Below are positions 5,921 to 30,576 of a stretch of DNA of 64,000 nucleotides, piece by piece; positions within the stretch are counted from its first letter, which is position 1, and every line of letters begins with the position of its first letter. A program made the position numbers and the translations under genes. A model generated the notes under the pieces. The model did no database searches and was not told the origin of the DNA. It saw only the letters and a list, made by a program, of their open reading frames with translations. Source of the stretch: a virus (Duplodnaviria; Heunggongvirae; Uroviricota; Caudoviricetes); IMG/VR virus record IMGVR_UViG_3300017963_000216, positions 33,863-97,862 of that record, one strand, 5' to 3'.

Positions 5921-5922
5921 AG

Positions 5923-6305: not shown

Positions 6306-6311
6306 AAGCGT

Positions 6312-6739: not shown

Positions 6740-6762
6740 GACAGTCTCCAAGTGGTTAAGGG

Positions 6763-7005
6763 TTAAAGGGCGATATGGCCTTCCATAATGTCGTCGAACG
6801 TGGTCCGGATCAACATGATCTCGGTGATACCCAGCTTGTTGTCTCGGCAGATCTTGAGCACAGGTCCGCCGTAGATCAGGCAGTAGATCAGGGACTTGCA
6901 CGCGGCCCGAGGCAGGCTAGTATGGCTGGCGAGGCAGTCCCACACCAACGGGCCGATGTCGTTCCCTTCGTTCTTCGTCTTCTCTTCGCTCAGTACGTCA
7001 AGCAT
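6763..7005 (-). CDS. hypothetical protein
   Basis: 80-aa ORF with GGAGGTGA RBS. Confidence 0.45.
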   Translation of the reverse strand: MLDVLSEEKTKNEGNDIGPLVWDCLASHTSLPRAACKSLIYCLIYGGPVLKICRDNKLGITEIMLIRTTFDDIMEGHIAL

Positions 7006-7079
7006 CAGATGTTGTCACCTCCAGTTAGCCACGCCACCAGCAGCACGGCGATTATCAACAGTGGTAAAAGTAAGTTCAT
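7005..7079 (-). CDS. 24-aa hydrophobic micro-protein
   Basis: MNLLLPLLIIAVLLVAWLTGGDNI with GGAGAAG RBS; TGATG coupling to the downstream gene. Confidence 0.2.
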   Translation of the reverse strand: MNLLLPLLIIAVLLVAWLTGGDNI

Positions 7080-7095
7080 CGTCTTCTCCGTTGTG

Positions 7096-7189
7096 AAATC
7101 CCAGCTGCGGGGCTTGCAACCTACCCAATGGGGATCGAACCCTTCAGTTACAAGCAAGGACGTCACACCTGGACGTCCCAGAGTCCCCG
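7096..7189 (-). ncRNA. tRNA-like structured element (non-canonical)
   Basis: T-arm-like AAGGG-TTCGATC-CCCAT plus a 9-bp long-range pairing GCTGCGGGG/CCCCGCAGC and an internal GGACGTC-CAGGTGT-GACGTCC hairpin. No canonical D arm. Confidence 0.3.
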
Positions 7190-7237
7190 CAGCCAGGGTG
7201 GTGTTTCAATTGCAAAGATCTTGGAGGTCCTCAGCAC

Positions 7238-7400
7238 CCTCACAATACTGATTCGCCCTGGTGAGGGCCAAAACCGGGCCGCTGCCCGCCTCCTCACTTT
7301 GCTTCCTTCTGTTTCAATAGCGGAGGGTCGAGGTCCACAGCTTCCTCACAAAACTGCTTCGCCTTAGTGAGGTCAAAACCGGACTGTTGCCCGCCTCTTT
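7238..7400. repeat. two ~60-bp imperfect direct repeats, each with a CCTCAC...GTGAGG hairpin and CAAAACCGG...TGCCCGCCTC box
   Basis: Unit A 7238-7300 and unit B 7344-7400 share CTCACAAnACTGnTTCGCC...GTGAGGnCAAAACCGG.....TGCCCGCCTC. Confidence 0.4.
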
Positions 7401-7420
7401 CTCCGCACTCTCTTTCAAGC

Positions 7421-7489
7421 ATGCCTGGAGGGACTCGAACCCCCGACCACCGGTGGCACCGGCACTCTACCAACTGAGCTACAAACATG
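7421..7489 (-). tRNA. tRNA-like gene with truncated/palindromic anticodon arm (possible pseudo-tRNA)
   Basis: Good acceptor ATGTTTG/CAGGCAT, D arm GCTC-AGTTGGTA-GAGT and T arm GGGGG-TTCGAGT-CCCTC. The anticodon region is replaced by the palindrome CCGGTG-C-CACCGG; total 69 nt. Confidence 0.35.
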
Positions 7490-7550
7490 TCATTGGTGTG
7501 CTTCGCACCACGTCCCGGTAGAGAGGTGCTCGCGTCTAGAATTCACCAAG

Positions 7551-7623
7551 CTCCGGGAACTGGGCTCGAACCAGTGACCTACAGATTAACAATCTGCCGC
7601 GCTACCAACTGCGCCATCCCGGA
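7551..7623 (-). tRNA. tRNA-Asn (anticodon GTT)
   Basis: Hand-folded: acceptor TCCGGGA/TCCCGGA, D arm GCGC-AGTTGGTA-GCGC, anticodon stem GCAGA/TCTGT with loop TTGTTAA, T arm ACTGG-TTCGAGC-CCAGT. Confidence 0.7.
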
Positions 7624-8884: not shown

Positions 8885-9174
8885 GGCTTCTCCATCCCTT
8901 CAATAGGCAGATCAAGGATGTCGTGAGGCATCCAGTTGATGTTGTAAGTCTCCGGGTGGTCGCTCGGCAGCGTCCAGTTCTCCACCTTCACCTCGTGGTA
9001 GTTGGACAGGGCGTCCACGTACCCGTCGATGTACGCACTGATGCTGTCGTGGTATTCATCGCCTCCAGCTATCAGGATTCCGAAAGGGCCGTACAACCCA
9101 GTGCACCCATCGCCATCTGGGTTGATGCGAACTCTGACAAGCAGCATCTTTGGCAGCATGTCCTTTTGGCTCAT
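8881..9174 (-). CDS. hypothetical protein
   Basis: 97-aa ORF, ATGA-coupled to the DNA polymerase gene. Confidence 0.5.
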   Translation of the reverse strand: MSQKDMLPKMLLVRVRINPDGDGCTGLYGPFGILIAGGDEYHDSISAYIDGYVDALSNYHEVKVENWTLPSDHPETYNINWMPHDILDLPIEGMEKP

Positions 9175-11741
9175 ATCATGTTCTCCAAGCTGCTAAGGTC
9201 TAGGCAGGGGTCAGGCACTTCGTCCAACGCCTCCAGTTCTTCGATCCCCATCGGGGCCACGTACTCTTCGTCGTCGAACACTTCCTTGATGCCGTGCGGG
9301 CCGATGGAGATGACCGCTTCCTTCGCGCCCTTCTTCCCTGCCCAGTTCTCCATGCTCTTGACCCAGTCCATGCCGATCAGCGGCACCCGGTCGCGGTATG
9401 ACTCGACCACCCGCAAGGTGACATCGGTCACCTCGTCGACGTAGTCCGGGTCGGTCACGCTGAGCACCTCATCGTGGATGTTGATCGGAGCCACCCGCCA
9501 GGGGTTCACACCGCTGGGCTGGATGTCCCAGATCTGTCGCTGCAAGTCCTTCGTGATCATAGCTCCAGGTGACTGGATGAGGTGGTTGTTAGCCGCCCGG
9601 ATATTCGCTGCCTGTATCTGGAAAGCTGCTCCATATAACGCCGATGACACTGCTCCCGCTGGCGTTTGTTCTCGGTCTCTTCGGACGACCTTAAAGTCAA
9701 GTCGTCTCCAGGCTTTGGGAACGTCGTGGGCGAGGTCGAAGATGGCCTTAGCAATCTTATTCTCGATAGGGAAGTAGCGTCGGAATCCGAGGAACGTTTC
9801 GACATACTCAGCAGGCACCTTATACGTGATCTTGCCTGTACCAACCTCGCCGTGCTGCTCCAGAGCTGCGAAGTCTTCGGCAACTTTGTCACGTGCTGCT
9901 TTGATGCCTGGGTACTTGTTCTGGAAGTTGTCGAATGCGGTCTCGGCGACCTTCTTAGGAATCGACAGCTTTTTATTGATGGTGTTTGCGTCGCCGCCGT
10001 ACAATGTTGCAAACACAGCCTGCTTGCCACGAGTGTACATATCGACATCGCCACCGTCCTTATATCCTTTCGATGCCTTGATCTCTTCCTCAGTCTTGTT
10101 CGGATAGATCTCCACCGCCATCATGGTGTGGATAGACTTGCCAGCCAGCAGGTCAGCCCGTAGCTTGGCGTCCTGGAACACAGCGTCTGCCAAGGTCACC
10201 TCGAAGCCGTCGAAGTCACCACCGCACAGAACCATGCCTCCCCACTTCAGCGGGAAGCTCGACCGAACTTCGTCAGACCCTTTAATGCCTTGCGCGTTGA
10301 GACCTTCCCCGCCCGCCATACGGGATGACAAGGTTCCAATAACTTTGAACGCGGCGTGGAACCGTCCGGCTTGCAGCAGCTTTGTGTACAGTTCGACTTC
10401 TTTCGCTGCGGCCTTAATGTGCAGGATCTCGTCGGCCCGCTTGGACGCTGGGGTTGGTCCAGCCGGGAGGAAGCCCGCTTCAGAACACCGAATGCAGCCG
10501 TCGCCAAAACATTTAATGCACAGCTCACCGCCCAGCTCAGGGTCACAATCATCAGGATCAACAATGTATTCGTCACGTATCTTCTCCAGGTTCGCCTTCT
10601 TCGTGCTCTTGTCGATCAAGGTTGCCTCGGTCTCGTCCATCACTTCGCGGATGTACTCTTTGACCTTGGAAGGCTTGTTGATGTTTACCGGGGATGCCTC
10701 AAGCACTTGGCGGGATTTTGCAAGTAGTCTGGCGATCTCTGTGGCGTCGATGGTGAAACCATGCCAACGAACAGAGGCGACCATGCATGCAAGCACTGAG
10801 TCATTGTCTCCTGCTTCTGGGAAGCCGAAGTATTCGTCGAGCAACCGTGTGTAGACAACGTCGTCTCGTGCGTAGCGTCTAGCCTCTTCATTATCTCTCC
10901 AGTGTTTAATGTCAATATGAATGAGCGCGGGCCATGCGTAGCCCTTCAGTTTACGCTGCTTATCCCATACTTTCCAATCCACCTCAGGCTTGCTGATTCC
11001 CAAGGCGAACGGAGCGTACCCGATCTCTGCCAGCTTGTGCGGGCGGATTGGGTAGACATCCTTGAACGAGTGGAACTCAGGGTCCAGACCGAGGCAGTGC
11101 TCGGCCAGATACTTCAGCCCTCTCGCAGGTTTGAACTTCAGTGTAACATCGACGAAGTCCGGATCGATCTCATCTTCCTTGCCCTTCTTAATCCTGTCGT
11201 ACACGCCCCACTTCGGAGCGTTGGGGTTGGCTCTCTTAGCGAACAAGATGCCGTCCAGCTCAATACGCTTCTCCAGCTCCTGAGCCAGCTTCGACCCGAG
11301 CTGTCTCGGGACCTTCGTCACACGCACGTCGTGCCGCGACATGAGCGTCTGGAACTTGCCCTTGCGGCTGTGCAGCATCAGGCAGATGACGTTGTCAGGC
11401 TTGTAGCAGTCGCCGTCTCGGGCGTCCTTCTCTGCCTGCGCCAGGACATCCACGTGGATGTTCTTCGGCACAGCGTCAGGACCTACACGCTCAGCCAGCA
11501 GCTTCCACATCGTGTACACCTTGCACATGTGGAACGTGTCGTAGTTGGCGTTGAAGAAGCACAGGGTCTTACCCTTCTCTACGAACTTCTCCAGCAGCTC
11601 AATGGTGTCACGCACCGGCACATCCCAGAGGTTGTGCAGGTGAACATCCCCATCCTCGTAAGCCCACTGGATGAGGGTGATGAGACCTTGAAAGCCAACC
11701 GTCTCAGAATCTATATAGTATGTGTTAGGTCTGAATCTCAT
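9171..11741 (-). CDS. DNA polymerase, family A (Pol I-like) with N-terminal 3'-5' proofreading exonuclease
   Basis: Exo I YIDSETVGF near the N-terminus; motif A GGDFDGFEVTLA; motif B RGKQAVFATLYGG; motif C NIHDEVL. Start trimmed to MRFRPNTYYIDSETVGF (11741) just past the HNH gene stop. Confidence 0.8.
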   Translation of the reverse strand: MRFRPNTYYIDSETVGFQGLITLIQWAYEDGDVHLHNLWDVPVRDTIELLEKFVEKGKTLCFFNANYDTFHMCKVYTMWKLLAERVGPDAVPKNIHVDVLAQAEKDARDGDCYKPDNVICLMLHSRKGKFQTLMSRHDVRVTKVPRQLGSKLAQELEKRIELDGILFAKRANPNAPKWGVYDRIKKGKEDEIDPDFVDVTLKFKPARGLKYLAEHCLGLDPEFHSFKDVYPIRPHKLAEIGYAPFALGISKPEVDWKVWDKQRKLKGYAWPALIHIDIKHWRDNEEARRYARDDVVYTRLLDEYFGFPEAGDNDSVLACMVASVRWHGFTIDATEIARLLAKSRQVLEASPVNINKPSKVKEYIREVMDETEATLIDKSTKKANLEKIRDEYIVDPDDCDPELGGELCIKCFGDGCIRCSEAGFLPAGPTPASKRADEILHIKAAAKEVELYTKLLQAGRFHAAFKVIGTLSSRMAGGEGLNAQGIKGSDEVRSSFPLKWGGMVLCGGDFDGFEVTLADAVFQDAKLRADLLAGKSIHTMMAVEIYPNKTEEEIKASKGYKDGGDVDMYTRGKQAVFATLYGGDANTINKKLSIPKKVAETAFDNFQNKYPGIKAARDKVAEDFAALEQHGEVGTGKITYKVPAEYVETFLGFRRYFPIENKIAKAIFDLAHDVPKAWRRLDFKVVRRDREQTPAGAVSSALYGAAFQIQAANIRAANNHLIQSPGAMITKDLQRQIWDIQPSGVNPWRVAPINIHDEVLSVTDPDYVDEVTDVTLRVVESYRDRVPLIGMDWVKSMENWAGKKGAKEAVISIGPHGIKEVFDDEEYVAPMGIEELEALDEVPDPCLDLSSLENMI

Positions 11742-12234
11742 AAGTCCAGCTATACCCTCCTGCTGTGTTTCGTTGTCCGGTGCAAGCTTTGCAAATGTTA
11801 CTGTGGTATGTACCGCTCTCCTCAGCCGCAACACTGATGTTTATGAAGCGAACACCGTCACTCCTGATTACTGGTGACCCTCCATGGGTTCCATCTCTTC
11901 GTTGATCTAACGCGTTCTGCTGTCGGGTGCCATAGCTGAGATTGTCAACAGAGTTGTCGCCTAAACCTGCTGGCCCGTGCCGAACCTCGTGACCTTCTGG
12001 GCGACGGCCTAGGAACGCCTCTGCCACCAGCTTGTGAACGTTGAAGGTTCTTCCAGATAGCCCAACTTGGTGATACCCGAAATTGTTGAAGAAGTGTTTC
12101 AGCACCCGGCCCTTCAACTGGCAGGTTCCGTGCGTCGGATGCTTGGCTTCCCTAGGCAACGAGCGGACACGCCCAAGGTCAGACACTTGGTATGCACCTT
12201 CGTAGCCTTCTATGTCTTTCCACTTCTCGCTCAC
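11725..12234 (-). CDS. HNH homing-endonuclease-like protein (NUMOD4-like N-terminus)
   Basis: WKDIEGYEGAYQVSDLGRVRSL (NUMOD4-like) and HKLVAEAFLGRRPEGHEVRHGPAGLGDNSVDNLSYGTRQQN (HNH). GTG start overlaps the stop of the upstream small ORF. Confidence 0.7.
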   Translation of the reverse strand: MSEKWKDIEGYEGAYQVSDLGRVRSLPREAKHPTHGTCQLKGRVLKHFFNNFGYHQVGLSGRTFNVHKLVAEAFLGRRPEGHEVRHGPAGLGDNSVDNLSYGTRQQNALDQRRDGTHGGSPVIRSDGVRFINISVAAEESGTYHSNICKACTGQRNTAGGYSWTYEIQT

Positions 12235-15286: not shown

Positions 15287-15576
15287 TTCACTCCTCTTTC
15301 TGTTCTGACTCTGTCCATCGCCTTCGCGGCGTGCGGTTCAAAGTCTCGGTGTACAATGTCAGCTATCGCCATGTTCTCTTGGAGTACCTTTAGGCCATCG
15401 CATGCCCAGGACTCAGGTACAAAACAATCTATGCCAGTGGTTCCCACCGCACAGGGGGCGGGGACCGCCGCTACAGAGGGGGTGCTGCCTCCCAACAAAG
15501 GAAGCGGCAACACCATTGCTGGTATTGCCGCTCCAATCACCCTAAGAAACGATCTTCGTTTCATGCTATCGGACAC
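15283..15576 (-). CDS. small exported protein with twin-arginine (Tat) signal peptide
   Basis: MKRRSFLRVIGAAIPAMVLPLPLLGG is an RRxFLR Tat motif plus hydrophobic core. The mature part has 3 Cys. Confidence 0.5.
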   Translation of the reverse strand: MSDSMKRRSFLRVIGAAIPAMVLPLPLLGGSTPSVAAVPAPCAVGTTGIDCFVPESWACDGLKVLQENMAIADIVHRDFEPHAAKAMDRVRTERGVK

Positions 15577-16291
15577 ACCCCACTACTTCGCGGATGGCGT
15601 CGCCAATAGTCTTGTCTTCGTCCCGCTGGATCGAGGAGATGATAATCTCCTGCAAGCCGGGGCTCAGTGAGAATGGGTTGTCACCCAACACGTAGTCGCC
15701 TTCGGCAGGCGTGTCACCCTGAGGCGTAATGGTGCCCAAGGGCGTCACAACGCTGAGGTAAGCCAGGAGGGCTTCACCCTGGCGGTTGCCAGTGCCAACG
15801 CCAGTGGCGGTGACTGCCGGTGCTGCTACGTCCATGTCGACGTTGGCCGTCGTGACGAGCATGTTCAAGTTGGTGACTGAGTCTCCGTTCGCCGTCATGC
15901 TGATGGCTGCCGACGACGCGTTAGCAGTCACACCAACCTTGAGGTCGTCAGCGGTGTACGTCTCGTTCAGAACCTCTCCAGACAGGGCGGTGTCGAGAGC
16001 GGTCTGGACGGCGGCGTTCGCCGAGTTGTAGGCGATGTTGCCTGTGGTGACTTCGACGCCCACCTTCGGGAAGCTGAGTGTGATAGTGAAGTTGCCAGTC
16101 GTGCCTCCGTTGGCAGCGATGGACGCCGAAGCGTCATCAGCGAAGTACGGCGGCGACAAGGTGGGGTCGTTGATCGCTTGAAGGTCAAGCAGCTCTTTGT
16201 ACGCGTGGCGCTGCTGACCTTTCTGGTCAGAGTCTTCGTTGGTGTTGATGGTCGATGCAGCGGTCAGGAAAGTGGCAATAGTACCAGCCAT
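15566..16291 (-). CDS. Ala/Thr/Asn-rich protein with multiple N-X-S/T sequons (structural-like)
   Basis: 241 aa with low-complexity T/A/N/G-rich composition (GNFTIT, NETYT, NASSA). Confidence 0.5.
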   Translation of the reverse strand: MAGTIATFLTAASTINTNEDSDQKGQQRHAYKELLDLQAINDPTLSPPYFADDASASIAANGGTTGNFTITLSFPKVGVEVTTGNIAYNSANAAVQTALDTALSGEVLNETYTADDLKVGVTANASSAAISMTANGDSVTNLNMLVTTANVDMDVAAPAVTATGVGTGNRQGEALLAYLSVVTPLGTITPQGDTPAEGDYVLGDNPFSLSPGLQEIIISSIQRDEDKTIGDAIREVVGCVR

Positions 16292-16609: not shown

Positions 16610-17884
16610 CTACAGTGCCGCTGCGATCTCTTCCATCTGGTCGATCTTGTAACGACGCGGTCCAGTCGCTTCGTAGGGACAACGCAGCTTCACAGGAAGC
16701 CGCCACGTGATACCATAGTCCTTGTTGACGCCGTGGATCAACTGGGAAGGTTCAGTGAACCCGCCGAGGGCGTTGAACGCGTAGGCGTCACTTGCAGGCC
16801 ACGCGCCGTTGATGAGCATCTCGCCATTCACCTCGGTCGTCGAACCGGGGCGGTGGAAGTGACCGCAACAGTAGTAGCGAATCGGGGTACAGTTCTGAAC
16901 ACCGTTCAAGGCCATCATTCGGTGACGGCGCTTCTCCAGGCCGTACCACGGAATGCCCAAGCTTGAGCGGATGTCGTCGCCATGGAAGACTTGGAAGCCG
17001 ACGCCGCCAATGTCCAGGTTGCACGAGAACGAGTTGGGAATGTTGAAGGAAACGTTCGGCAAGTCGCGGAGATACATCTCGGCGGTCTTGGCGATCAGGT
17101 AGTCCCAGTTGTCATGCGCGCCATGGTAGTCCTTCTTATTGGACCGGCGACCGTGGTTGCCCGGCACGTAGACGATGTTGACCTGATCAAAGTACGGGGC
17201 GAGGTCGCGGTACATCAGCGAGTGGAGTTGACCGATAGCAAACGCATTCTTAAAAGCGTTGCGGAAATAGGATCGCGATGTATGTCCATGAATCTCGCCG
17301 GACGTGTGGTCGCCGTAGGCCAGCACGGTGAGGCTGGGGAAGGCGAAGCCTTGCAAGGTCTGCTGGGTCCACTTGAGGATCGTGTCAACATACCTCTCGG
17401 CCCGACACATCGAAATGGGGAAGTCATAGGTCTCCAGTCCGCCCGTGTCGTCGGGCGTGACGATCTGGTCGTGGTGACCATCACTGATGTGCATCACGAG
17501 GTGCTCGCGGATGGTGCCCTTGCCGTCCTTCTTGAACTTGGGGCGTGCCGAGGGCAGCGGACGCATCGGCTTGACTCGTTCGTCCATCTCCTCGACCACG
17601 GCTTGGAACAAGCCCTGAGTCTTGGCGGCGGACTTGAGCTGCCGCTTGTACTTGTTGCGTTCGTCTCGGAGATGCTCGTTGTCGGATTGCAGCTTGAAGA
17701 TCTGGGCGTCTTGCTCGGTCATGACTATCTCCGCTTTGACGTCTTTGTGTACTCGGCCACAGGCGATGTCACTGATGACAGACCGGCTGACGCCGTACTT
17801 CGTGCCGATTTCCTTCTGAGTGAGTAGCTTCTCTGAGAGATCCACCTTGATCTCTTTCACGCTCTTTTCATTCAGCTTGGTCAT
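16610..17884 (-). CDS. calcineurin-like metallophosphoesterase (SbcD/Mre11-like motifs) with N-terminal HTH domain
   Basis: Motifs SDGHHD, AYGDHTSGEIHG, VYVPGNHG and CCGHFH; N-terminal LTQKEIGTKYGVSRSVISDI helix-turn-helix and a coiled-coil linker. Confidence 0.7.
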   Translation of the reverse strand: MTKLNEKSVKEIKVDLSEKLLTQKEIGTKYGVSRSVISDIACGRVHKDVKAEIVMTEQDAQIFKLQSDNEHLRDERNKYKRQLKSAAKTQGLFQAVVEEMDERVKPMRPLPSARPKFKKDGKGTIREHLVMHISDGHHDQIVTPDDTGGLETYDFPISMCRAERYVDTILKWTQQTLQGFAFPSLTVLAYGDHTSGEIHGHTSRSYFRNAFKNAFAIGQLHSLMYRDLAPYFDQVNIVYVPGNHGRRSNKKDYHGAHDNWDYLIAKTAEMYLRDLPNVSFNIPNSFSCNLDIGGVGFQVFHGDDIRSSLGIPWYGLEKRRHRMMALNGVQNCTPIRYYCCGHFHRPGSTTEVNGEMLINGAWPASDAYAFNALGGFTEPSQLIHGVNKDYGITWRLPVKLRCPYEATGPRRYKIDQMEEIAAAL

Positions 17885-19772
17885 TTGGTTCTCCGATGAG
17901 TTTCGTTTCAGTAAAAGGGTGATTCTTTAGTGTGTACTCTAAGGCTTCAAGGAAGTAGTTTCCCTTGAGTGTGAACAGTCGTTCCTTCAGGTTCAGGCTT
18001 GCCAAGTGCTCCCGCTGCGCGGCAAGTTTCTCCGGGTCGACGATCAGCTCGGCTGCTCGCTCGACAAAGTCACGAGGCGAGGTCACGTTGTTCTCGCTCA
18101 TGCCAACCTGATCGTTCAGCCACATACCGGCCCGGTTGTAGAACCGAGAGCCGACCATCGTGATGAAAGGCAGCCCCATGTAGAGGCTCTCTATCAGAAC
18201 GTTGTAGCATCCGAACGGGAAGGAGTTCAGGGAGAGGTCGTGCTGCTCCGCGTTCTCCATGTAGTCGTAATACTCCTGTGCGTTGTGCATGATCATGTTC
18301 GGCACGATCTTGCGGGCCTCGTTGACGAAGCTAGGCAACGCAGCGTAGCGGTTGACCCCAGGGCTGGCGAAGAAGTGGAACTCGTGGTCGAGCACTGGCT
18401 CCGATTCGGCTTCCTTCTTCAGGGCGATGACTCGCTGGTTGATAGCACCGACTATCTGCAACAACGTGTTGTTGTATTTGTCGGGGCCCCACACGCAGTT
18501 GATGCGAACGATGCCGTCAGCCTTGTAGTTGTGCTTCCTCTCGTACGTCGGCCACGCGGGCTCTTGTGCGAGACCAGGGATCATGACGCGAGTCTCAGAG
18601 TAGGCCTCTGGGTCGCAGTCCTTCTCGACGTCGCCACCGAAGTGGTAGTCGATTTCGTTGTTGTCGCCGGTCGTGTCAGGGTGACCGTAGCCGACCGCTT
18701 GGATCGGGGCCATGCGACAGTTGCTCAGCCAGATGCTCTCGTCCGACATGCCGATGTCAGGGAAGTATACCATCTGGAAGTCGTTGTCGACCAACGCCTC
18801 AGGCATCTCAATTCCGCCGTCCTGTCGGAAGTAGCACTTGTGCACCGAGTCGAAGTAGTCGGTCACTATCGTGTCTGGGTTGTGCTCTCCGGTCCAGATC
18901 AGGGTCAGCTTGTACTTGTCCTTCCACTGCTCTACCAGCGGGCCAGCGGACTTGTACACTGCGTGGTTGCGGTGCCACCGGTTGGTGATGATCGCGATTG
19001 ACTTCGGGTCTGGGTTGTTGGTGAACGTCCAGTTCAGCTTCTCTTTGATGGCCTTCTTCATGGCCGTGTTCATGATGGCCTTCAGGTTGCGTACATGCTC
19101 AGGGCAATGATAGGTGCTGGAGAAGTACATGCCAGACACGTGGTTCGAGTACGGCTCCCACCGGGAGTCGATGTTCTTGATGTGATTGTACATGTTCGCC
19201 TGAATGACATTGGTAGGCGACGAAATACCGAGCAAGTAGGTTTGGTACCACATCGAAGCCAGTATCGGGCTGACTGCGAACAAGTTGTCCTGAGAGATCT
19301 GGGTCACGCATCGAGGGTTCTGCAACATCAGAACCTTGGCTGCGTTGTCCTTTGTGATGAGCACATTCCGCAGCGGGCCGTCCGTTGTTTCGTAGCCGGT
19401 AAGGGCCACGATGTGCTGGTACAAGTGACCCACCTGGACGAGGCCTTGTGCGTGATTGTCGTTCGGCACAAACTCTTCGTCCATCAAAGCCGTGTTGGTG
19501 ATCTGAACGAATTCATTCAGCACCTTGATGGCCGCAGTGGAGAACTTGGTGAAGTGATGCGACTCGAAGAACAGCAGGTACTTGATGATCAAGTCCCAGA
19601 CCTTGGGGTCGCGAGCGGTGACCGCCTTCAAGCACGCATTGTAATTCAGTGCGGGGATGCCCGTCTCTTTGGTGGGCTCGATGATGAGCTGCTCGGACAC
19701 CGCCTTCTGTCGCAGCGACTTGGTCTTGCGCTTCGCGTCCAGCTGCTTCTGTCGTTTCTTATTCCTGGCCAC
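17868..19772 (-). CDS. GT41-family glycosyltransferase (OGT/HMW1C-like catalytic region, no TPRs)
   Basis: RMAPIQAVGYGHPDTTG...DY aligns with OGT LRPAPIQAMWLGYPGTSG...DY. C-terminal FPFGCYNVLIESLYMGLPFITMVGSRFYNRAGMW aligns with OGT [35 protein letters not shown]. Lys/Arg-rich N-terminus. Confidence 0.65.
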   Translation of the reverse strand: MARNKKRQKQLDAKRKTKSLRQKAVSEQLIIEPTKETGIPALNYNACLKAVTARDPKVWDLIIKYLLFFESHHFTKFSTAAIKVLNEFVQITNTALMDEEFVPNDNHAQGLVQVGHLYQHIVALTGYETTDGPLRNVLITKDNAAKVLMLQNPRCVTQISQDNLFAVSPILASMWYQTYLLGISSPTNVIQANMYNHIKNIDSRWEPYSNHVSGMYFSSTYHCPEHVRNLKAIMNTAMKKAIKEKLNWTFTNNPDPKSIAIITNRWHRNHAVYKSAGPLVEQWKDKYKLTLIWTGEHNPDTIVTDYFDSVHKCYFRQDGGIEMPEALVDNDFQMVYFPDIGMSDESIWLSNCRMAPIQAVGYGHPDTTGDNNEIDYHFGGDVEKDCDPEAYSETRVMIPGLAQEPAWPTYERKHNYKADGIVRINCVWGPDKYNNTLLQIVGAINQRVIALKKEAESEPVLDHEFHFFASPGVNRYAALPSFVNEARKIVPNMIMHNAQEYYDYMENAEQHDLSLNSFPFGCYNVLIESLYMGLPFITMVGSRFYNRAGMWLNDQVGMSENNVTSPRDFVERAAELIVDPEKLAAQREHLASLNLKERLFTLKGNYFLEALEYTLKNHPFTETKLIGEPNDQAE

Positions 19773-20925
19773 GGTCGACCTCCACTAATTTGCCCTGCTC
19801 GAAAGACAGGATGCGGTTGCACGGGATGTTGCGACGCTTGATCTCTTCGGCGATGTCTGCCTTACGCCAAGCAGTCGTTATAACAATTGTGTCTACGTGG
19901 TCGATCAGCAGCTTCTCTGGGGACGTGATCTGGATGCCAGTCCCAGGAACGTACATGCCGACCTTGTTCTCGTCGCTGTCCACCACCAGAGCGTCTTCAG
20001 GAACGCCGAGGTAGTTCAGGAACATCGCCGACTTGCCAGCACCGCCCCAGTAGGCCACGCTGTCCATGTCTTTGAGTTCGGCTCCGATCTTGCAGCAGGT
20101 GAACGACATCTTGTTAAAGCTGTCGCGCAACTTGCAGAAGGTGTCCTCCTCGAACGGTAGGACATGGCCGATGTAAACCAGCACCTCGCCGCCGTAGGAC
20201 CTGTAGCAAGCGTCCGTCTCGAACCCGGCACGTTGCATCAGACTGACCAAGCTGGCCCGTGTGAAGTGCTGCGGGTGCTCGTACGTCCAGTCTGCCAGTC
20301 GTGTGTCGGTCAGGGCGTTCTCGATGCTGGGCACTTCCACAACAACATTGGCGTTCTTGCCGAAGTGTCGACGGGCTTGGGCGATGCCCTCCATGAAACT
20401 CTTCGGGTCCTCCATGTGTTCCAGGAGATGTCGCATAACCACGACCAAGTCGCCAGCGCCATTAGGAAGATGGCGGCTCGGGTCGAAGTAGTTCTTCTCG
20501 ACATGAATGTTCTGATCCTCGCAGCCTCCCTTGTTGGCTGCCGGGTCCACTGCGATCTTGATGAACCCAGGGTCCAGCATGTCGAGGAACTCGCAGTTGC
20601 CAGCCCCAATCTCCAGCACGGTCGGTACGGTTCCATATCGGTAGTTGACGCTTCCGGCCAGCTCTTCCATATGTCGCAGCCACCTGTGGCCATTGTTCCA
20701 CATGCGACAGCCTTCGCCGGAATACTCCACCTCGTGTGTGAAGCTGGTGTTGAAGCAGTGCCCACACTGCTCGCAGATCGAGATCGTGATTGGCAGCCGC
20801 AGCTGACACTCAGAGTCGCCCTTGGTCTTGGTCAGAGCCACTAATGAAAGCGGCTGCCGACCCATATCGATCAAGGGGTACACGTCCACTGTGCCACAAG
20901 CCGGGCAGGCATCTTGAACTTTCAA
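19759..20925 (-). CDS. class I SAM-dependent methyltransferase with N-terminal zinc ribbon (NDP-hexose C-methyltransferase TylCIII/CoxQ-like architecture)
   Basis: CPACG...CEQCGHC zinc ribbon; VLEIGAGNCEFLDML motif I; C-terminal extension. Overlaps the GT41 start by 14 nt (same operon). Confidence 0.6.
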   Translation of the reverse strand: MKVQDACPACGTVDVYPLIDMGRQPLSLVALTKTKGDSECQLRLPITISICEQCGHCFNTSFTHEVEYSGEGCRMWNNGHRWLRHMEELAGSVNYRYGTVPTVLEIGAGNCEFLDMLDPGFIKIAVDPAANKGGCEDQNIHVEKNYFDPSRHLPNGAGDLVVVMRHLLEHMEDPKSFMEGIAQARRHFGKNANVVVEVPSIENALTDTRLADWTYEHPQHFTRASLVSLMQRAGFETDACYRSYGGEVLVYIGHVLPFEEDTFCKLRDSFNKMSFTCCKIGAELKDMDSVAYWGGAGKSAMFLNYLGVPEDALVVDSDENKVGMYVPGTGIQITSPEKLLIDHVDTIVITTAWRKADIAEEIKRRNIPCNRILSFEQGKLVEVDRGQE

Positions 20926-21086: not shown

Positions 21087-21439
21087 GGTGCTTCCGTTTC
21101 TTTCAGTTCTTCCTGGTACATGGGGCTGACACACACCTCGCCGCGTTCCTTCTTGATGTTGGCCACTGTCGCGCCAACGTAAGGACCTTCGTAGAGGCAC
21201 TCCACCATCGGCACGTCGAAGGCGGCACACACTGCTTTGATGTAGTTGTAGCCAGGGCAGGTGTCGTTCAGCTTGATGTCGAGCACAGCACCTTCCGAGT
21301 CGCAGACAACGCAGACGTCGGCGTCTTCGCCGCGAAGGCCGTACAATATCTCGGTGATCTTCGCAGGTGTCTTCGAGTTGGGAATGCAGCTGTGGTAGTA
21401 GTACATATCGTTGGGCATCAGCAGGACTGCAATGTTCAT
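21080..21439 (-). CDS. hypothetical protein
   Basis: 119-aa ORF, ATGA-coupled to the helicase gene. Confidence 0.45.
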   Translation of the reverse strand: MNIAVLLMPNDMYYYHSCIPNSKTPAKITEILYGLRGEDADVCVVCDSEGAVLDIKLNDTCPGYNYIKAVCAAFDVPMVECLYEGPYVGATVANIKKERGEVCVSPMYQEELKETEAPC

Positions 21440-23397
21440 ACTAGGGATTCCTTCATTTCTGTCAAGGTCATTTCTTCGAGACGACGATTGTCTCGCAACA
21501 CGTCCAACACCTTCTGGTCGGTCCCAAGGTGGAACAGGTCGACGATGGTGGCACCCTTGTTCTCGTCCATGCCTGGACGATGGATGCGGTCTTCGGCCTG
21601 CCGTCGCGACTCCGGTTTGAAGTCGTTACTATAAAACACTTCCATCCTGGCCTCAGTCAGAGTCAAACCCATACCGCCTGACTCTGGGTGCGCGACAAAC
21701 ACGACTCGTTCGTTGTTAAGGTTGCGCCAATAGTTGAGCGGCTTCAGCTTGGTGCTGACTCGCTCACCGTCGTACCTCATGACCTTCCACCCGCGACCGT
21801 CGACCCGCACCACGTTCCATTGCTGGGCATGGCACACGTTGACTATCCGGTCGATTGATCCTCGGAAGCCTGCGAAGACGACAAGACGGCCTTGGTCTTC
21901 GTTCTCTTCCAACAGGTCTCGGATGGCCTGCTCTTTCGGGCACTTCACTTCTTTGGTCTCGCGGACCATTTTGGGGATCTCACCGGACCCCATGCACTTC
22001 TCACACTGCTCAGTACGCAGCTCGTAGTTGATCTCGCCGCGAGCCAATGCAGCAGCTGGGTCGTAACCTTCAGGGAAATCGTGAGTCTCACCGGACTCAT
22101 CAAACCACTGCTGGCACTCGCCTTCGCCTTTGCACACTGGACACGGGATCACGCCGTCTTGCACGTCGCGGTATTGGAAGCCGTCAGACAACTCCCGCAG
22201 CCACGTCATGCCTTGGATGACACTCAGGGCCGACTTGGCCAAGGCCTTGGCGACACGCTTGATGGTGCTGCTCGGCTCCAGGTGAACCTCTCGGTAAACC
22301 TTGTCCGGCAAGTCCAGGACGTCCTTCTTCAACAGCGGAAGAGCCAGACCATCCAGCCGCTCGTACATGTAAGCCACTTCGTTGACACAGGGCACAAATG
22401 TGTGCGCGTTGTCGGAGGCGAAGATGTCGTCGGTCATGTGGATTGGGTTGTCCACTCGGATGACGCTGCCGTCTTCCTGCTCCTCGTCTATCCACATGAA
22501 CTGGCCACAAACCGAGCAGCGTTCCACGTCGTCCTTCCACGCGGTGCGGGTCCAGAACTTTCCTTGGTCGGTGTACTTCTCTTGGTAGATGCCGAGCCGT
22601 TGCTCGAACGCTTTGGCCGATCCTTCCTTCAGGAAGCCAGGGTAGCAGATCTCGCACTGACTCCACCAGTCCAGCGGGGACTTCGGAGCGGGTGTACCAG
22701 ACATCAGGATCACGTAGCCGTCCCACCCGTGCTCTCGGCGGATGGCGTCAGACAGGTGCTGAGCTGCCTTGGTTCGCTTCGACTTCCAGGACTTGAGTCG
22801 GGAAGACTCGTCGAAGATCACACCTTTCGGTGCGGGTCGGCCCGCCTCCCATCGTTCGATCTCAAGAGTGAAGCCACGGTAGGTCATCAGGTTGGGGTTG
22901 GTTCGCAGACCCCACTTCTCGAACTCCAGGTCCACAGCGTTGAGACCAGACCGTGGGGCGACCCACCACCAGTCGTTCACACCAGACCGCTCCATCACTT
23001 CGATGGCTGACAGCGTTTTACCAACGCCCATCTCGGCAGCCAGGATCTTGTAGTGGTACGTCAGGCAGTGGTCGGACATCAAACACTGATGGTCGAACAA
23101 AGGCCGTTCGTAGATGAAGTTCTGTAGCGGCTTGTCCCAGTTAGCGTATGGGTTGCCGCCTTGCATGTAGTCGAGTTGGAAGTTGTTGCGGGTGCAGTCG
23201 GACACCGACCAGATCTTTCTCTTGTCGCCCTCGATGAAGCCGTGCCACTTGCTCCCTGCCATTGCTTTGATCTCGTCCTTCAAGGCATAGTCAGACTTGA
23301 GGAATTCGATCCGGCCATTCTCACGAGACACGGTGGCGGGTGAACGCACCCAGGAGCCACTCTTAGTCTGCTTGAGAAGTTTTAGTTCTTCAATCAT
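21436..23397 (-). CDS. SNF2-family (SF2) helicase/ATPase with inserted Cys-rich zinc-finger region
   Basis: Motif I LAAEMGVGKTLSAI; motif II VIFDESSRLKS; motif III VILMSGTPAPKSPLD; motif VI QAEDRIHRPGMDE; CxxC pairs mid-protein. Confidence 0.75.
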   Translation of the reverse strand: MIEELKLLKQTKSGSWVRSPATVSRENGRIEFLKSDYALKDEIKAMAGSKWHGFIEGDKRKIWSVSDCTRNNFQLDYMQGGNPYANWDKPLQNFIYERPLFDHQCLMSDHCLTYHYKILAAEMGVGKTLSAIEVMERSGVNDWWWVAPRSGLNAVDLEFEKWGLRTNPNLMTYRGFTLEIERWEAGRPAPKGVIFDESSRLKSWKSKRTKAAQHLSDAIRREHGWDGYVILMSGTPAPKSPLDWWSQCEICYPGFLKEGSAKAFEQRLGIYQEKYTDQGKFWTRTAWKDDVERCSVCGQFMWIDEEQEDGSVIRVDNPIHMTDDIFASDNAHTFVPCVNEVAYMYERLDGLALPLLKKDVLDLPDKVYREVHLEPSSTIKRVAKALAKSALSVIQGMTWLRELSDGFQYRDVQDGVIPCPVCKGEGECQQWFDESGETHDFPEGYDPAAALARGEINYELRTEQCEKCMGSGEIPKMVRETKEVKCPKEQAIRDLLEENEDQGRLVVFAGFRGSIDRIVNVCHAQQWNVVRVDGRGWKVMRYDGERVSTKLKPLNYWRNLNNERVVFVAHPESGGMGLTLTEARMEVFYSNDFKPESRRQAEDRIHRPGMDENKGATIVDLFHLGTDQKVLDVLRDNRRLEEMTLTEMKESLV

Positions 23398-26647: not shown

Positions 26648-29392
26648 ATGCAAAATCCCAGAATGACAGTCGCGTACAAGACGTACTATGACAATGTGCT
26701 GTCAAAGAACCACAACAATCCCGAGCTTATCGCTCGATGGGGCAACGACCCGGCGCGATTAGAGACCCAGATCCTGTGCTTCAACCACGGACGTCCCATT
26801 GAGGACTCCAAGATGTTCGAGGACAAGGGAGAGGTCTTCGGACCCGCTCGGTGGCCTTACAACGCCAAGACCGAGCCCAATTACAGCAACCCGCCAATCC
26901 AATATATTATAGGCGACCGTATGCAATGCATCGGGAGCACATGGTGGAACTGGAAGGAACGGCACTCTGAGGGGCTTGGCTTTGACTTTGATACCATAGC
27001 CGGGCACGCCGACGGCATCGGGATCTCGGACAAAGAGATGGCCAAGCTGGACAAGATCGATGTGCCGTGGCTGGAAGTCATCCGCTCGACGCGGGGTGGC
27101 GGCAGGCACTTGTACATCTGGTTCCAGGAGCCATACCCAGTAACAATGAATCATGACGAGCACGCTGCGCTCGCACGTTCGTTCATTCCGCTGATCGCCA
27201 AACACACAGGCTTCGACTGCGAAGCGAACGTAGATGTCTGCGGCGGGAACATGTGGTTCCACCACGTGGAAGCAACAAAAGAGAATCGCGGCTACTCGCA
27301 GGTGAAGCCAGCGACACAGATACTGACTGACGCCCACGTCCCTCCGAACTGGAGAGATCATCTTGAAGTTGTCTCGGGCGGCAGGACCAAAGTGAGAGTC
27401 CAAGGATGGACCTCCGATGGAACAGAGACCGAGGGCGACGAACTGGACGAGATGACCCAGGCGCACTCTAAGATTGAACTCGACGAGATCCACCTCCGTA
27501 TACTGGAAGAGCTGGAAGAGACAGGGCACACAGCTCTGTGGGTTCCGGATCACCATCTGTGGCAGGGGCACACGGGCGGGTTGAAAGAAGTGTACGACAA
27601 GTGGGCTGCGAACGACACTCCGATGAAGGGCCTGTTCGACACCAACTCGCACGAGCAGGATCGAGGCAAGCCTAACTGCTTCATGAGGCCCAAGGCGAAC
27701 GGCGGCTGGGATGTGTACCGCTTCGGTGAGGCTGTGGAGTGTGAGCTGTGGGGTAAGCAAGGCAAGTGGACCCACACCACCTACAACTTCCCGGCGACGC
27801 TTCGTCAGATCGCGATGGCGTGTGGAGGCTTTGAAGGTCCGGACCCGAAGCAAGGGTTCATCTTCAGCACAGCCGCAGAGATGGAAGCTGCGTTGGTGAT
27901 GCTGGGGTCAAAGATAACGCTCCCTGTCGCCGCTGTGAAGGACACGTCTCGCACAATGGCGTTGCGTGCACGCGAGTCGGACGGCAAGATCGTGCTGGTC
28001 ATCAGTAAGAAAGGGAAAGATGAGCCAGGGGACTGGCCTCGGTTCGCGAAGACGACGAAGGGGTGGGAGCGGGTCATTGACGACGCGATAGACACCTCCG
28101 ACAAAGAGCAAGAGGACGCGGAGCTGTGGACAGAGCTGGACGACAAGTTCAGGGCGTTGAAGATCGGCGACAAGTTCGACGACTGGGTGCTGAGAGACCA
28201 CAGTGAGAAGTGGACCATCCACCCGCGTGAAAACGTCAAGGCGTACCTGATGTCTCAAGGGATCGCGAAGGTGGACCCTGTGATAGGTGCCGCCGTGTTC
28301 AAAGCATGGCAATTGACGAATGACCCGTTCGCCCCAGAGTATCCCGGAGGCCGCAAGTGGAACAGGAACGCAGCCCAGCTGAAGTATGCCCCTCGCGAGA
28401 TGGGAGAGGACGAAGCTCCCCACCATCCAAACTGGGACCGGGTTATGAACCACTGTGGGACCGACCTGGACGAGTACATACTCGATCTGCCTTGGACCGC
28501 TTCGTGGGGAATCCGCAGAGGTGGCGATTACTTGACTGCTTGGATCGCGTGCATGTTGCGCCAGCCTCAGTGCAAGCTTCCCTACCTTTTCATGTACGGA
28601 CCTCAGAACAGTGGCAAGTCCATATTCCACGAGGCGATCTCGGAGCTTATGACCAAAGGCGTGGTGAAAGCTGACCGGGCACTCACCTCGAAGCAGGGCT
28701 ACAACGGCGAGCTGATGGATGCGGTACTTGCGGTTGTCGACGAAGTGAACATCAGCAAGTCGGGCGGCATGGAGGCGTACGACAAGCTGAAAGAGTGGAC
28801 GACCGGCATGACGGTCAGCATCCACGCCAAGTACAAGCAGGTCCAGGAAGTGGCGAGCACGTTGCACTTTGTGCAGATGGCCAACAACCGCAGCAGCCTG
28901 CCTGTATTCCCAGGAGACACGCGGGTGACCGCGTTCAATGTGCCCAGCTTGGAGGAGGACATTCCGAAGGACGTGTTGCTCGCCTCGCTGCGTAAAGAGG
29001 CTCCGGACTTCATGCGGACTCTGGTCGACCAGACGATGCCGGAAGCCCTCGGGCGTATGAGGCTGCCGGTCATAGAGACTCGTGGCAAGCAAGAGGCCGT
29101 GATCGGCAACATGAATCCCTTGGAGCTGTTCATCCAAGAGAGGTGTCACATGATCAACGGCGGCACCGTGCTGTTGAAGGATTTCAGGGACCGGTTCTGG
29201 AAAGATCTGGATCAGTTCCAGAAAGACGAGTGGTCTTCAAGGGCTATCAAGGACAGGCTGTCAGAGACCTTCCCTATTGCCTTGGACTCCAGAAAGAATG
29301 TCCGTATTGGTAACCTCAGTTTCACAAAGTGTGAGCCCACCGCTAGGTGGTTCGTAGATAACAACAAACTTGTGCAGGAGAGTGCAGAATGA
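26648..29392 (+). CDS. bifunctional primase-polymerase (AEP) / SF3 (D5-like) helicase
   Basis: AEP motifs DFDTIAGHAD and STRGGGRHLYIWF; Walker A GPQNSGKS; Walker B VVDEV. Start set at MQNPRM (26648) with GGAGAT RBS rather than the RBS-less 26612. Confidence 0.8.
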   Translation: MQNPRMTVAYKTYYDNVLSKNHNNPELIARWGNDPARLETQILCFNHGRPIEDSKMFEDKGEVFGPARWPYNAKTEPNYSNPPIQYIIGDRMQCIGSTWWNWKERHSEGLGFDFDTIAGHADGIGISDKEMAKLDKIDVPWLEVIRSTRGGGRHLYIWFQEPYPVTMNHDEHAALARSFIPLIAKHTGFDCEANVDVCGGNMWFHHVEATKENRGYSQVKPATQILTDAHVPPNWRDHLEVVSGGRTKVRVQGWTSDGTETEGDELDEMTQAHSKIELDEIHLRILEELEETGHTALWVPDHHLWQGHTGGLKEVYDKWAANDTPMKGLFDTNSHEQDRGKPNCFMRPKANGGWDVYRFGEAVECELWGKQGKWTHTTYNFPATLRQIAMACGGFEGPDPKQGFIFSTAAEMEAALVMLGSKITLPVAAVKDTSRTMALRARESDGKIVLVISKKGKDEPGDWPRFAKTTKGWERVIDDAIDTSDKEQEDAELWTELDDKFRALKIGDKFDDWVLRDHSEKWTIHPRENVKAYLMSQGIAKVDPVIGAAVFKAWQLTNDPFAPEYPGGRKWNRNAAQLKYAPREMGEDEAPHHPNWDRVMNHCGTDLDEYILDLPWTASWGIRRGGDYLTAWIACMLRQPQCKLPYLFMYGPQNSGKSIFHEAISELMTKGVVKADRALTSKQGYNGELMDAVLAVVDEVNISKSGGMEAYDKLKEWTTGMTVSIHAKYKQVQEVASTLHFVQMANNRSSLPVFPGDTRVTAFNVPSLEEDIPKDVLLASLRKEAPDFMRTLVDQTMPEALGRMRLPVIETRGKQEAVIGNMNPLELFIQERCHMINGGTVLLKDFRDRFWKDLDQFQKDEWSSRAIKDRLSETFPIALDSRKNVRIGNLSFTKCEPTARWFVDNNKLVQESAE

Positions 29393-30576
29393 GTGACGGC
29401 TTCAAAGACAGTGGAAAACGTAGCAGCTTCGAGACAGGCGCGCACCGCGATCTCCAGGATGGCAAAGGGCGTATGGATTTGCTGCCTTTCCAGGCACTGA
29501 TGAAGGTGTCGAAGGTGTTCGAGGAAGGGGCGAAGAAGTATCGCGCGAACAACTGGCGGCGGGGCATTCCGCTGTCGCGGTATGCGGATTCAGGCATGCG
29601 GCACATGTCCAAGTGGATGATGGGCATGCGAGACGAGCCCCATCTGGATATGGCATGCTGGAACTTCCTCTGCCTCATCGAGACTCAGGAGCTGATCAAG
29701 CAAGGGCTGCTTCCGGAAGAGCTGAACGATCTGCCGTACAACCCGCTGTGCATCGAGGACAATCCGCTCGAACTGCCTGAGCTGGATCTGCCGTTGGAAG
29801 GTGTGGAGCTGGATGAAGTGGGGAAGGAAGAGACGTTCACTATGACGGCTTCTCAGTTTGAGGAGCACATGGCTGGCGTCAGGAAGAAGGAAGCGTGCAA
29901 GGACGAGACCGGCGACGCGTTCTACGCGGCCCAGGCAGCTGGCCTGTGCACCGGCAACAGCATCTATGGTTCCATCTTGTCAGAAGAGGATCTGTTGAAA
30001 GCCCGGCAGGACATCGCCAAGGCGCAGGCCGACAAAGAGCAGGCCGAGCTGGACGAGGCGGCGGACATGAGCGACTGCCCTGGCTGCGAAGAGCCGGGCG
30101 GGTGTGATGGTTGCGATGCAGACGCGTGGGGCGGAGAGGTGCCGGTCGTCACACAGAAGGCTGCCCAGATGGGGTTCACTAACAGTGTAGCGCGTCAGAT
30201 GCTGGAATCCCGTTGGGACGACGAGGAGTGGGACGAGGAGGAGTGGGACGAATACGCTGATGCGATATATAATGATGCCGAAGCAGAGGCCTTGGCGATC
30301 AAACAAGAGATCTCAGAGTATGTGCCGCTGGAAACGATGCTTTCTTTCGTCATGGAATATGGCCCGGAAGACACGAGGGTGTTGGCCAAAGGCGCTAAGA
30401 TCTCGGGCATGTCGATGACCAAGTACGTGGACGCCTTGAAAGAGATGGCGAACTTCTACAACACTGCGCTCGGCGAGCCCTGGTCGAAGAACTACGACCA
30501 AGATCTGAAGGACCAGAGCCAGCAGCGGGTGGAGGAGCTGTTCAAACCCGAAGAGGGGCTGGAGGGGAAGAGATGA
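29389..30576 (+). CDS. dATP/dGTP diphosphohydrolase-like N-terminal domain (DUF5664-like) protein with acidic C-terminal extension
   Basis: KDSGKRSSFETGAHRDLQDGKGRMDLLPFQALMKVSKVFEEGAKKYRANNWRRGIPLSRY resembles the phage dNTP pyrophosphohydrolase N-domain. Acidic WDDEEWDEEEWDEYAD tract; ATGA-coupled. Confidence 0.55.
   Translation: MSDGFKDSGKRSSFETGAHRDLQDGKGRMDLLPFQALMKVSKVFEEGAKKYRANNWRRGIPLSRYADSGMRHMSKWMMGMRDEPHLDMACWNFLCLIETQELIKQGLLPEELNDLPYNPLCIEDNPLELPELDLPLEGVELDEVGKEETFTMTASQFEEHMAGVRKKEACKDETGDAFYAAQAAGLCTGNSIYGSILSEEDLLKARQDIAKAQADKEQAELDEAADMSDCPGCEEPGGCDGCDADAWGGEVPVVTQKAAQMGFTNSVARQMLESRWDDEEWDEEEWDEYADAIYNDAEAEALAIKQEISEYVPLETMLSFVMEYGPEDTRVLAKGAKISGMSMTKYVDALKEMANFYNTALGEPWSKNYDQDLKDQSQQRVEELFKPEEGLEGKR

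Follow-up and report, generated by a model that had tools for sequence, protein, structure and literature searches.

The locus at positions 16,610 to 20,925 of a 64,000-nt stretch of phage DNA (IMG/VR record IMGVR_UViG_3300017963_000216; the window) raises the question of what a glycosyltransferase gene and a methyltransferase gene, which overlap each other on the minus strand, do for a phage and to which acceptor the sugar is transferred. An earlier note had read them as an N-glycosylation system for the virion proteins of the phage itself. The 634-aa glycosyltransferase (GT; 17868..19772, minus strand) was confirmed as a full-length HMW1C-like GT41 enzyme with preserved catalytic and nucleotide-sugar site, and the 388-aa methyltransferase (MT; 19759..20925, minus strand), the upstream member, is of the three-domain nucleoside diphosphate (NDP)-hexose 3-C-methyltransferase type (TylC3/TcaB9/KijD1-like). 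The pair is a real, previously undescribed phage cassette, most likely attaching a methyl-tailored sugar to a protein in the cytoplasm, at a non-canonical site. Contig-wide scans covered the 73.9-kb metagenomic phage contig (JGI 3300017971, Ga0180438_10000529), of which the window makes up most.

Identification of the glycosyltransferase

Both open reading frames were found on the minus strand as annotated, and the motifs CRMAPIQAVGYGHPDTTG..IDY and FPFGCYNVLIESLYMGLPFITMVGSRFYNRAGMW, by which the protein had been aligned with GT41 enzymes by eye, are present in the 634-aa translation. In a phmmer search against the PDB, the GT matched the HMW1C-like N-glycosyltransferases (NGTs) AaNGT and ApNGT with E~2e-20 over residues 147-616, while SPINDLY (5e-9) and XcOGT (1e-6) scored lower. 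A family profile built from 43 sequences gave 1e-40 for ApNGT and 1e-8 for OGT. The AlphaFold (AF2) model of the GT has a mean predicted local distance difference test score (pLDDT) of 90.9 and a predicted template modelling (TM) score of 0.88. All top 10 Foldseek matches of this model are ApNGT or AaNGT structures (E 1e-28, TM 0.72-0.77, about 630 columns), and SPY and OGT follow with a TM of about 0.5. The match to ApNGT/AaNGT is full-length and includes the N-terminal all-alpha domain, which replaces the tetratricopeptide repeats (TPRs) in HMW1C-type enzymes. The assignment to GT41 made in the earlier note thus holds and can be narrowed to the HMW1C-like branch, at an identity of ~18-19% to HMW1C, ApNGT and AaNGT.

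Not every profile check agreed with this. The Pfam model Glyco_transf_41 (PF13844) did not match the GT at E<=0.1, and relatives of the GT gave faint or above-threshold matches to it, whereas the family profile, NCBIfam, PDB and fold searches all support the family. The NCBIfam model NF049992 'NGTferase' was matched with 8e-24 and 84.2 bits at an equivalog cut-off of 1000; judged by its sequence, the GT is a homolog and not an equivalog of NGTferase. The PHROGs scan of the GT returned no match, and PADLOC reported nothing for GT or MT.

The protein consists of a basic N-terminal helix, the all-alpha domain and a GT-B catalytic domain. The Lys/Arg-rich N-terminus and the lack of TPRs described previously were both seen. 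Within the first 35 residues, 7-14 Lys and Arg are found in 42/43 homologs, and this helix is without counterpart in ApNGT. More distant phage members of the family lack the basic tail.

Identification of the methyltransferase

The MT carries a zinc ribbon with four Cys, a class I S-adenosylmethionine (SAM) domain and a C-methyltransferase (Methyltransf_14) C-terminal domain. Pfam matches were obtained to Methyltransf_23 (2e-13) and to the two models named for the check in the earlier note, Methyltransf_14 (7e-11) and Methyltransf_13 (8e-5). Against the D-mycarose 3-C-methyltransferase TylC3 (PDB 4rv9), the single sequence scored 1e-15 and the profile 1.6e-27 over the full length, with residues 3-355 aligned end to end to residues 11-382. 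The Pfam and TylC3 results bear out the layout of zinc ribbon, methyltransferase and C-terminal extension that had been proposed. TcaB9 (2e-20) and KijD1 (9e-19) were matched as well, and the PDB matches that come next, at 1e-9 or worse, are to generic SAM domains.

Invariant in 24 MT homologs are the zinc-binding Cys residues C7, C10, C51 and C54, the GxG loop, H170 and E216-H217, as well as the C-terminal family motifs WGGAGK, DSD and PGTG. H170 and E216-H217 align with H181 and E224-H225 of TcaB9, which together with Tyr222 we take to be the catalytic residues of that enzyme. TcaB9 Y222 aligns to a variable position of the MT, and an invariant Tyr215 adjoins it.

Catalytic and acceptor-reading residues

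Residues K432, N524, E528, G363-H364, H267/H270 and Y221 of the GT are invariant across the 43 homologs and align with K441, N521, D525, G370-H371, H274/H277 and Y222 of ApNGT, respectively. Of these, K441, N521 and D525 touch uridine diphosphate (UDP) in ApNGT (PMC10466321).

The residues that read the acceptor differ from those of the characterized enzymes. Solved complexes and mutagenesis assign the reading of the sequon's +2 Ser/Thr to R177, D215 and H214 in AaNGT and to 215-DVYM-218 in ApNGT (PMC10507012, PMC10466321). The Ala mutants of AaNGT R177 and D215 are both inactive (PMC10507012, PMC10466321), and the ApNGT variants D215G/A/S are slower and show relaxed sequon specificity with residual N-x-T activity (PMC10466321). 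In the 43 close members of the phage family, the D215 column holds Gly (22), Ser (11), Cys (6), Val (2), Asn (1) and Pro (1), and never Asp. The R177 column, which corresponds to GT position 181 in the profile alignment, is occupied by Leu in 37 members and by other non-basic residues (Leu/Met/Ile), never by Arg, and the H214 column holds Ser or Thr. Because the Asp and Arg readers are replaced by small or hydrophobic residues in 43/43 aligned close family members, the acceptor motif would not be the canonical N-X-S/T that had been assumed earlier; together with the relaxed specificity of the ApNGT D215 mutants, this leads to the expectation of a non-canonical or relaxed motif.

A further difference concerns the donor side. 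Ala469 of the GT aligns with ApNGT Q469, and Ala, Pro, Gly or Thr are found at this position across the family. By analogy with the Q469A variant in 8J30, a small residue here would enlarge the donor pocket and could fit a bulkier sugar.

Sequon statistics of the virion proteins

The earlier note had described the virion proteins as saturated with N-X-S/T sequons. For the 104 called proteins of the contig, sequon counts were therefore compared, both for single proteins and for whole modules, with those in composition-preserving shuffles and with control motifs. In the virion module (31704-55539, about 31.7-55.5 kb) 62 sequons were observed at an expectation of 64.0±7.1 (z -0.27), and the remaining contig proteins contain 59 (64.2±7.3 expected). 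The sequon density is 0.81 per 100 aa in the virion module and 0.41 elsewhere; since the counts match shuffles of these Asn/Ser/Thr-rich proteins, the twofold difference is entirely compositional. No individually named protein departs from expectation either. The 878-aa fibre-like protein (47047-49683) has 18 sequons (13.7±3.2 expected, p=0.13), the tandem paralogs at 37641-39409 (291 and 298 aa, 35% identity) have 4 and 3 (3.9 and 4.8 expected), a 166-aa protein has 2 (2.7 expected) and the 241-aa protein p241 has 3 (3.0 expected). The enrichment that had been proposed was consequently not found.

These counts bear on the possibility that the GT N-glycosylates Asn in N-X-S/T sequons of the fibre, tail and capsid proteins of the phage, as HMW1C does with adhesins. 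Such a role would agree with the HMW1C-like fold and the conserved catalytic site, with the absolute number of virion sequons (the density above and the 18 in the 878-aa protein), with the reduced N-x-T activity kept by the ApNGT D215G/A/S variants (PMC10466321) and with the place of p241, a decoration-fold protein with a conserved sequon described below, in the gene string of the cassette. It is nevertheless quite unlikely, given sequon counts at the compositional expectation, the replacement of both residues essential to sequon reading by AaNGT and the distance of the cassette from the structural module.

A strong excess was observed for the reversed motif [ST]-x-N, which occurs 102 times in the virion module (64±7 expected, z 5.4), most commonly as TAN, TGN, TIN and TLN. 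The excess is concentrated in the major capsid protein and in the proteins of 878 aa (z 6.1), 251 aa (tail-tube-like), 298 aa, 166 aa and 463 aa, by position especially in 47047-49683, 44726-45481 and 38513-39409, and part of it stems from TGNxT fibre repeats. Outside the virion module, p241 has 8 such motifs (2.8 expected, z 3.65). Lambda shows no enrichment and the Thermus phage Cumys little. As a strong bias is restricted to the closest sub-clade (z 2.4-7.4) and the more distant GT-positive loci L102, L109 and L122 show none, it does not track the presence of the GT, and [ST]-x-N was not used as evidence for an alternative acceptor motif. The bias is treated as lineage-specific or structural.

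Gene string around the cassette

The genes form a minus-strand string in the order helicase, p119, p54, MT, GT and exonuclease, in which successive genes overlap by 4-17 nt. The overlap of MT and GT comprises 14 nt (19759-19772), as had been noted before, and makes translational coupling of the two probable; that of GT and exonuclease comprises 17 nt. The helicase (653 aa, SNF2 family; 21436..23397) was identified by Pfam SNF2-rel_dom and Helicase_C and by phrog_62 (8e-57). The 424-aa exonuclease (16610..17884) combines a helix-turn-helix (HTH) domain with an SbcD/Mre11-like metallophosphoesterase (phrog_284 'exonuclease' 1.8e-38; Pfam Metallophos_2, HTH weak). The interval is hence not a glycosylation operon in its whole length, as had been suggested, and the pair does not adjoin the virion genes but lies between helicase and exonuclease. 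From the exonuclease, the string runs on via p81 and p241 (15566..16291), its last gene, to a terminator-like hairpin on the same strand just 3′ of p241 (15534-15501; 15-bp stem, 8 GC pairs). This hairpin is the strongest in 14.5-26.7 kb, where the number of terminator-like sites is not above that in shuffles, and the transcription unit holding the cassette probably ends here.

Distribution and co-inheritance of the pair

An indexed search returned 224 GT homologs at E<=1e-3, many of them from uncultivated environmental phages. In 20/20 phage loci retrieved via the GT (GT 36-64% identical), the MT lies directly upstream of the GT. The exonuclease, a conserved core replication/recombination gene, is found in relatives with and without the cassette and was used to anchor related loci. 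Out of 40 such loci, 25 carry both genes, 14 neither and none a single gene, with one too short to judge. Since both genes are present or absent together, they are gained and lost jointly and represent an accessory pair that is inherited together within a variable island. By synteny, the helicase is the conserved upstream border of this island, and in cassette-free loci the distance from it to the exonuclease is usually no more than about 1.5 kb. Among relatives, GT (29-64% identity) and MT (30-43%) have diverged further than exonuclease (48-81%) and helicase (43-68%).

Among 185,579 reference species genomes, two distant matches to the GT were obtained, both in metagenome-assembled genomes (MAGs). 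On one MAG contig, assigned to Deltaproteobacteria, a GT41 gene (29% identity) and a gene for the same type of MT (33%) are about 800 bp apart, with a SecDF-like gene alongside, and the context of this pair is probably cellular.

The island of related phages carries further cargo, namely homing endonucleases, a trypsin-like peptidase, an AP2-domain protein (PF00847), a second GT41 paralog, RNA ligase, RlaP, Ro60/TROVE and Mom. The last four of these include the RNA-repair and anti-restriction genes (RNA ligase, RlaP, Ro60/TROVE, Mom) for which the region bounded by helicase and exonuclease is a hot spot in relatives (L032 3811-4848, L044 6729-7799, L049 5877-7988, L046 884-1798, L043 3833-5437, L001 8196-8807); the RNA ligase has a PHA02142 OB domain, and one copy is split by a LAGLIDADG intein. 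The second GT41 paralog, shorter or longer than the first, stands beside it (L044 5092-6732, L048 4993-6588, L049 4285-5880, L051 2927-5047). Two of these paralogs were scanned and match Pfam Glyco_transf_41 with 1e-13 to 2e-9; that of L044 also shows a weak HMW1C_N match. The presence of a second paralog suggests that there are two acceptors or that transfer takes place in two steps.

Because of this cargo, a host-takeover or anti-defence role is suggested, in which, while replication is under way, the pair would glycosylate a protein of the host or a non-structural protein of the phage, analogous to phage ADP-ribosyltransferases or bacterial effector glycosyltransferases. The gain and loss of the cassette among close relatives and the faster divergence of GT and MT compared to the flanking genes are in line with such a role. 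The same holds for the all-alpha domain of the GT, since its strongly conserved residues in the family alignment suggest a conserved acceptor. On the other hand, the argument is one from neighbourhood only, the pair is without PADLOC or PHROG annotation and the literature searched contains no account of a comparable phage protein glycosyltransferase. Host takeover or anti-defence by the pair is possible but rather unlikely.

In an exhaustive search with the GT profile, 593 clusters were found at E<=1e-30. Multidomain proteins among the best matches, the closest cellular members of the subfamily, combine the HMW1C-like module with Methyltransf_23 (P0219, P0239), Sulfotransfer_4 (P0301), a GT4 domain (P0243) or a GT14 core-2/I-branching domain (P0281), and tandem GT41 copies occur in P0206, P0207 and P0208. 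As these partners build or tailor glycans, a glycoconjugate is favoured over DNA as the ancestral acceptor. It was also considered whether the methyltransferase fused to cellular GT41 proteins is orthologous to the phage MT; this was rejected, as the likeness is of a generic class I kind (hhalign probability 56%). A Stf0-like sulfotransferase (PF09037) is encoded on the contig beyond window position 1 (L007 19723-20429), which is notable in view of the sulfotransferase domain fused to a cellular GT relative.

The location of the cassette also has to be considered with respect to nucleic acids as acceptors. The GT41 homolog could glycosylate the DNA or RNA of the phage while the MT tailors the sugar or the base, as an anti-restriction measure like that of the T4 glucosyltransferases. 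The string that the cassette shares with helicase and exonuclease in the replication module points in this direction, as do the Mom-family gene directly upstream of the MT in the relative L001, the conserved Lys/Arg-rich GT helix and further oddities of nucleotide metabolism (dGTP_diPhyd_N protein, NT5C, radical SAM protein). Against this, all characterized GT41 enzymes act, to our knowledge, on proteins. A DNA acceptor is also disfavoured because no match to a hydroxymethyl-pyrimidine synthase (Thymidylat_synt) or to TET/JBP is on record in the contig. Furthermore, the subfamily fusions to sulfotransferase, GT4 and GT14 domains fit glycan building, the pair is also found in a MAG, where its context is probably cellular, and more distant phage members have no basic tail. 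Modification of nucleic acids is accordingly very unlikely.

The 241-aa protein as candidate acceptor

The Thr/Asn/Ala-rich protein p241 has 85 homologs, and its model (pLDDT 90.7) shows the fold of virion-surface decoration domains, as found in Bxb1 capsid, tail-tube and tail-tip proteins, Patience gp22 and the outer domains of FliD/flagellin. It has a conserved sequon, GN67-F-T69. Based on the model, p241 is a probable decoration protein of the virion that is encoded beside the cassette and away from the structural module. Its place in the same gene string makes it a candidate acceptor and a lead for a virion target, which is suggestive only. A sequence relationship that would make p241 a domain common to other virion proteins was not found.

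Proposed mechanism

In the proposed mechanism, the MT would tailor a host-supplied NDP-4-keto-6-deoxyhexose to a C-methyl-branched sugar; methylation of a sugar already transferred is the less likely option. The GT41 enzyme would then move the sugar onto a protein side chain in the cytoplasm, at an acceptor motif other than the canonical N-X-S/T. Phage surface proteins such as p241 and the fibre-like 878-aa protein would be the first choice as acceptors, and a host protein or non-structural phage protein the second. That the acceptor is a protein of some kind is probable. A two-gene accessory cassette whose GT41 member puts a methyl-tailored sugar onto protein at a non-canonical motif has about an even chance of being the correct description. 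The more specific version, in which a GT41 enzyme without the sequon-reading head and a sugar C-methyltransferase together place a methyl-branched sugar on phage surface proteins or a host protein, is offered tentatively and falls somewhat short of that.

Several points weigh against glycosylation of protein by the cassette as described here. No acceptor was identified in the present analyses. The cassette is situated in the replication module, in a variable accessory island between SNF2 helicase and exonuclease, with ~12 kb separating it from the closest structural gene, and the island cargo of RNA ligase, RlaP, Ro60, Mom, peptidase and homing endonucleases suggests anti-defence rather than virion maturation. 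The virion sequon count matches composition, and the GT is missed by the Pfam GT41 model and stays far below the NGTferase cut-off. Its conserved basic N-terminal tail would fit nucleic-acid binding as well. Members of the p241 family occur only in closer relatives that are GT-positive, apart from one weak match in a GT-negative phage, while the cassette is distributed more broadly. Finally, no Pfam match to a dehydratase, epimerase or reductase is on record for any gene of the 74-kb contig, nor is an enzyme making an NDP-4-keto sugar encoded, so that the substrate of the MT would need to be supplied by the host.

Comparison with known systems

The phage GT shares with HMW1C, ApNGT and AaNGT (GT41; PDB 3Q3E, 8J30, 8P0Q) the architecture of all-alpha and GT-B domains without TPRs, the catalytic Lys, the equivalents of N521/D525, the GHP motif and the H..H motif, and like these enzymes it is predicted to be soluble and cytoplasmic. 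It differs from them in the replacement of D215, R177 and H214 by Gly/Ser/Cys, Leu/Met/Ile and Ser/Thr, in the small residue (Ala/Pro/Gly/Thr) at the Q469 position, in the additional Lys/Arg-rich N-terminal helix, in its C-methyltransferase partner and in being encoded by a phage. Unlike HMW1C, it has no two-partner-secretion adhesin nearby, and Pfam scans found no HMW1A/B-like genes on the contig.

The MT has the zinc ribbon, the class I SAM domain and the C-terminal domain of nucleotide-binding type in common with TylC3, TcaB9 and KijD1 (PDB 4RV9, 3NDI, 5T64). The similarity is remote, and the position of TcaB9 Y222 is not conserved, with the invariant Tyr located one residue later. Dehydratase, aminotransferase and ketoreductase genes do not accompany the phage MT, and its partner is a GT41 enzyme in place of the GT1 enzyme of the antibiotic pathways.

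In enterobacterial flagellin glycosylation islands, GT41 enzymes are mostly fused to SAM-methyltransferase domains (PMC4875605). These fusions and the cellular P0219 and P0239 tie a GT41 enzyme to a SAM methyltransferase, as does the phage pair. Their methyltransferase is a simple fused class I domain, whereas that of the phage is a separate protein of the three-domain sugar C-methyltransferase type.

Virion glycosylation in actinophages is known from cluster F1 and other mycobacteriophages (mentioned in PMC11256854), where the genes are part of the structural operon. The capsid of chlorovirus PBCV-1 carries Asn-linked glucose at non-canonical sites and methylated sugars, for which various glycosyltransferase families are responsible. 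These systems and the phage pair, which is known here from its genes alone, have in common a virus-encoded cytoplasmic machinery that possibly decorates virions. The enzymes of both systems belong to families other than GT41 (GT2-type in actinophages according to the earlier note), and the cassette is located in the replication module, not in a structural operon as in actinophages. The T4-type DNA glucosyltransferases (GT63, GT72) are likewise phage GT-B enzymes encoded among genes of DNA metabolism. They show no fold-family tie to the GT beyond GT-B, a hydroxymethylase partner is missing here, and the best fold matches of the GT are protein glycosyltransferases.

A function of phage GT41 enzymes is not described in the literature searched, in which GT41 appears in viromes only as CAZy counts. 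If the proposed mechanism is true, the cassette would represent either a GT41-based route of virion glycosylation, not described for phages in that literature, or an act of host-protein takeover or anti-defence. Soluble NGTs are valued in sequon-directed glycoengineering, and a diverged viral clade could offer new acceptor and donor specificities on the basis of its different acceptor-reading head and the small residue at the donor-gating Q469 position.

Phage lineage and further genes of the contig

The phage is siphovirus-like and belongs to a lineage of uncultivated phages of about 70-120 kb. TerL (56001-57662, minus strand) is <=26% identical to that of any GenBank phage, so that no cultured relative was found, and a megablast search of the locus against GenBank phages gave no match; on these grounds, the phage has no annotated relative. 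The portal (53707-55539), the major capsid protein (50799-52184) and the tape measure protein (39995-43468) are encoded on the minus strand as well. Five tRNA genes, for His, Glu, Met, Gly and Asn, are clustered at 5844-7623 on the same strand.

Several genes are related to nucleotide metabolism. The 395-aa protein encoded at 29389-30576 (plus strand) has an N-terminal domain of the dATP/dGTP diphosphohydrolase type (PF18909); it is followed by an RNase_T-type exonuclease (30573-31169, plus strand), and this pair at 29389-31169 is on the strand opposite to most genes. Together with an NT5C deoxyribonucleotidase (193-792), these proteins are hints of an unusual handling of the nucleotide pool. 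In the early region, a 328-aa radical SAM protein with a CxxxCxxC motif is encoded (2187-3173, minus strand); its best NCBIfam matches are the MoaA, viperin-like and SPASM families, all far under the cut-offs. At its start, the gene for the family A DNA polymerase (9171-11741) overlaps with a NUMOD4/HNH homing-endonuclease gene (11725-12234, minus strand).

Tandem paralogs were additionally observed at 58708-60954 (390 and 351 aa, 25% identity) and just past the window end at 64537-65402 in window numbering (125 and 133 aa, 38% identity). A 463-aa protein (36239-37630) and a 142-aa DUF7239 protein (4720-5148) have a segment in common (E 7e-4). On the contig past window position 1 (L007 17205-17369), an Acb2/Tad1-hairpin protein is encoded, which belongs to the anti-CBASS/Thoeris sponge family.

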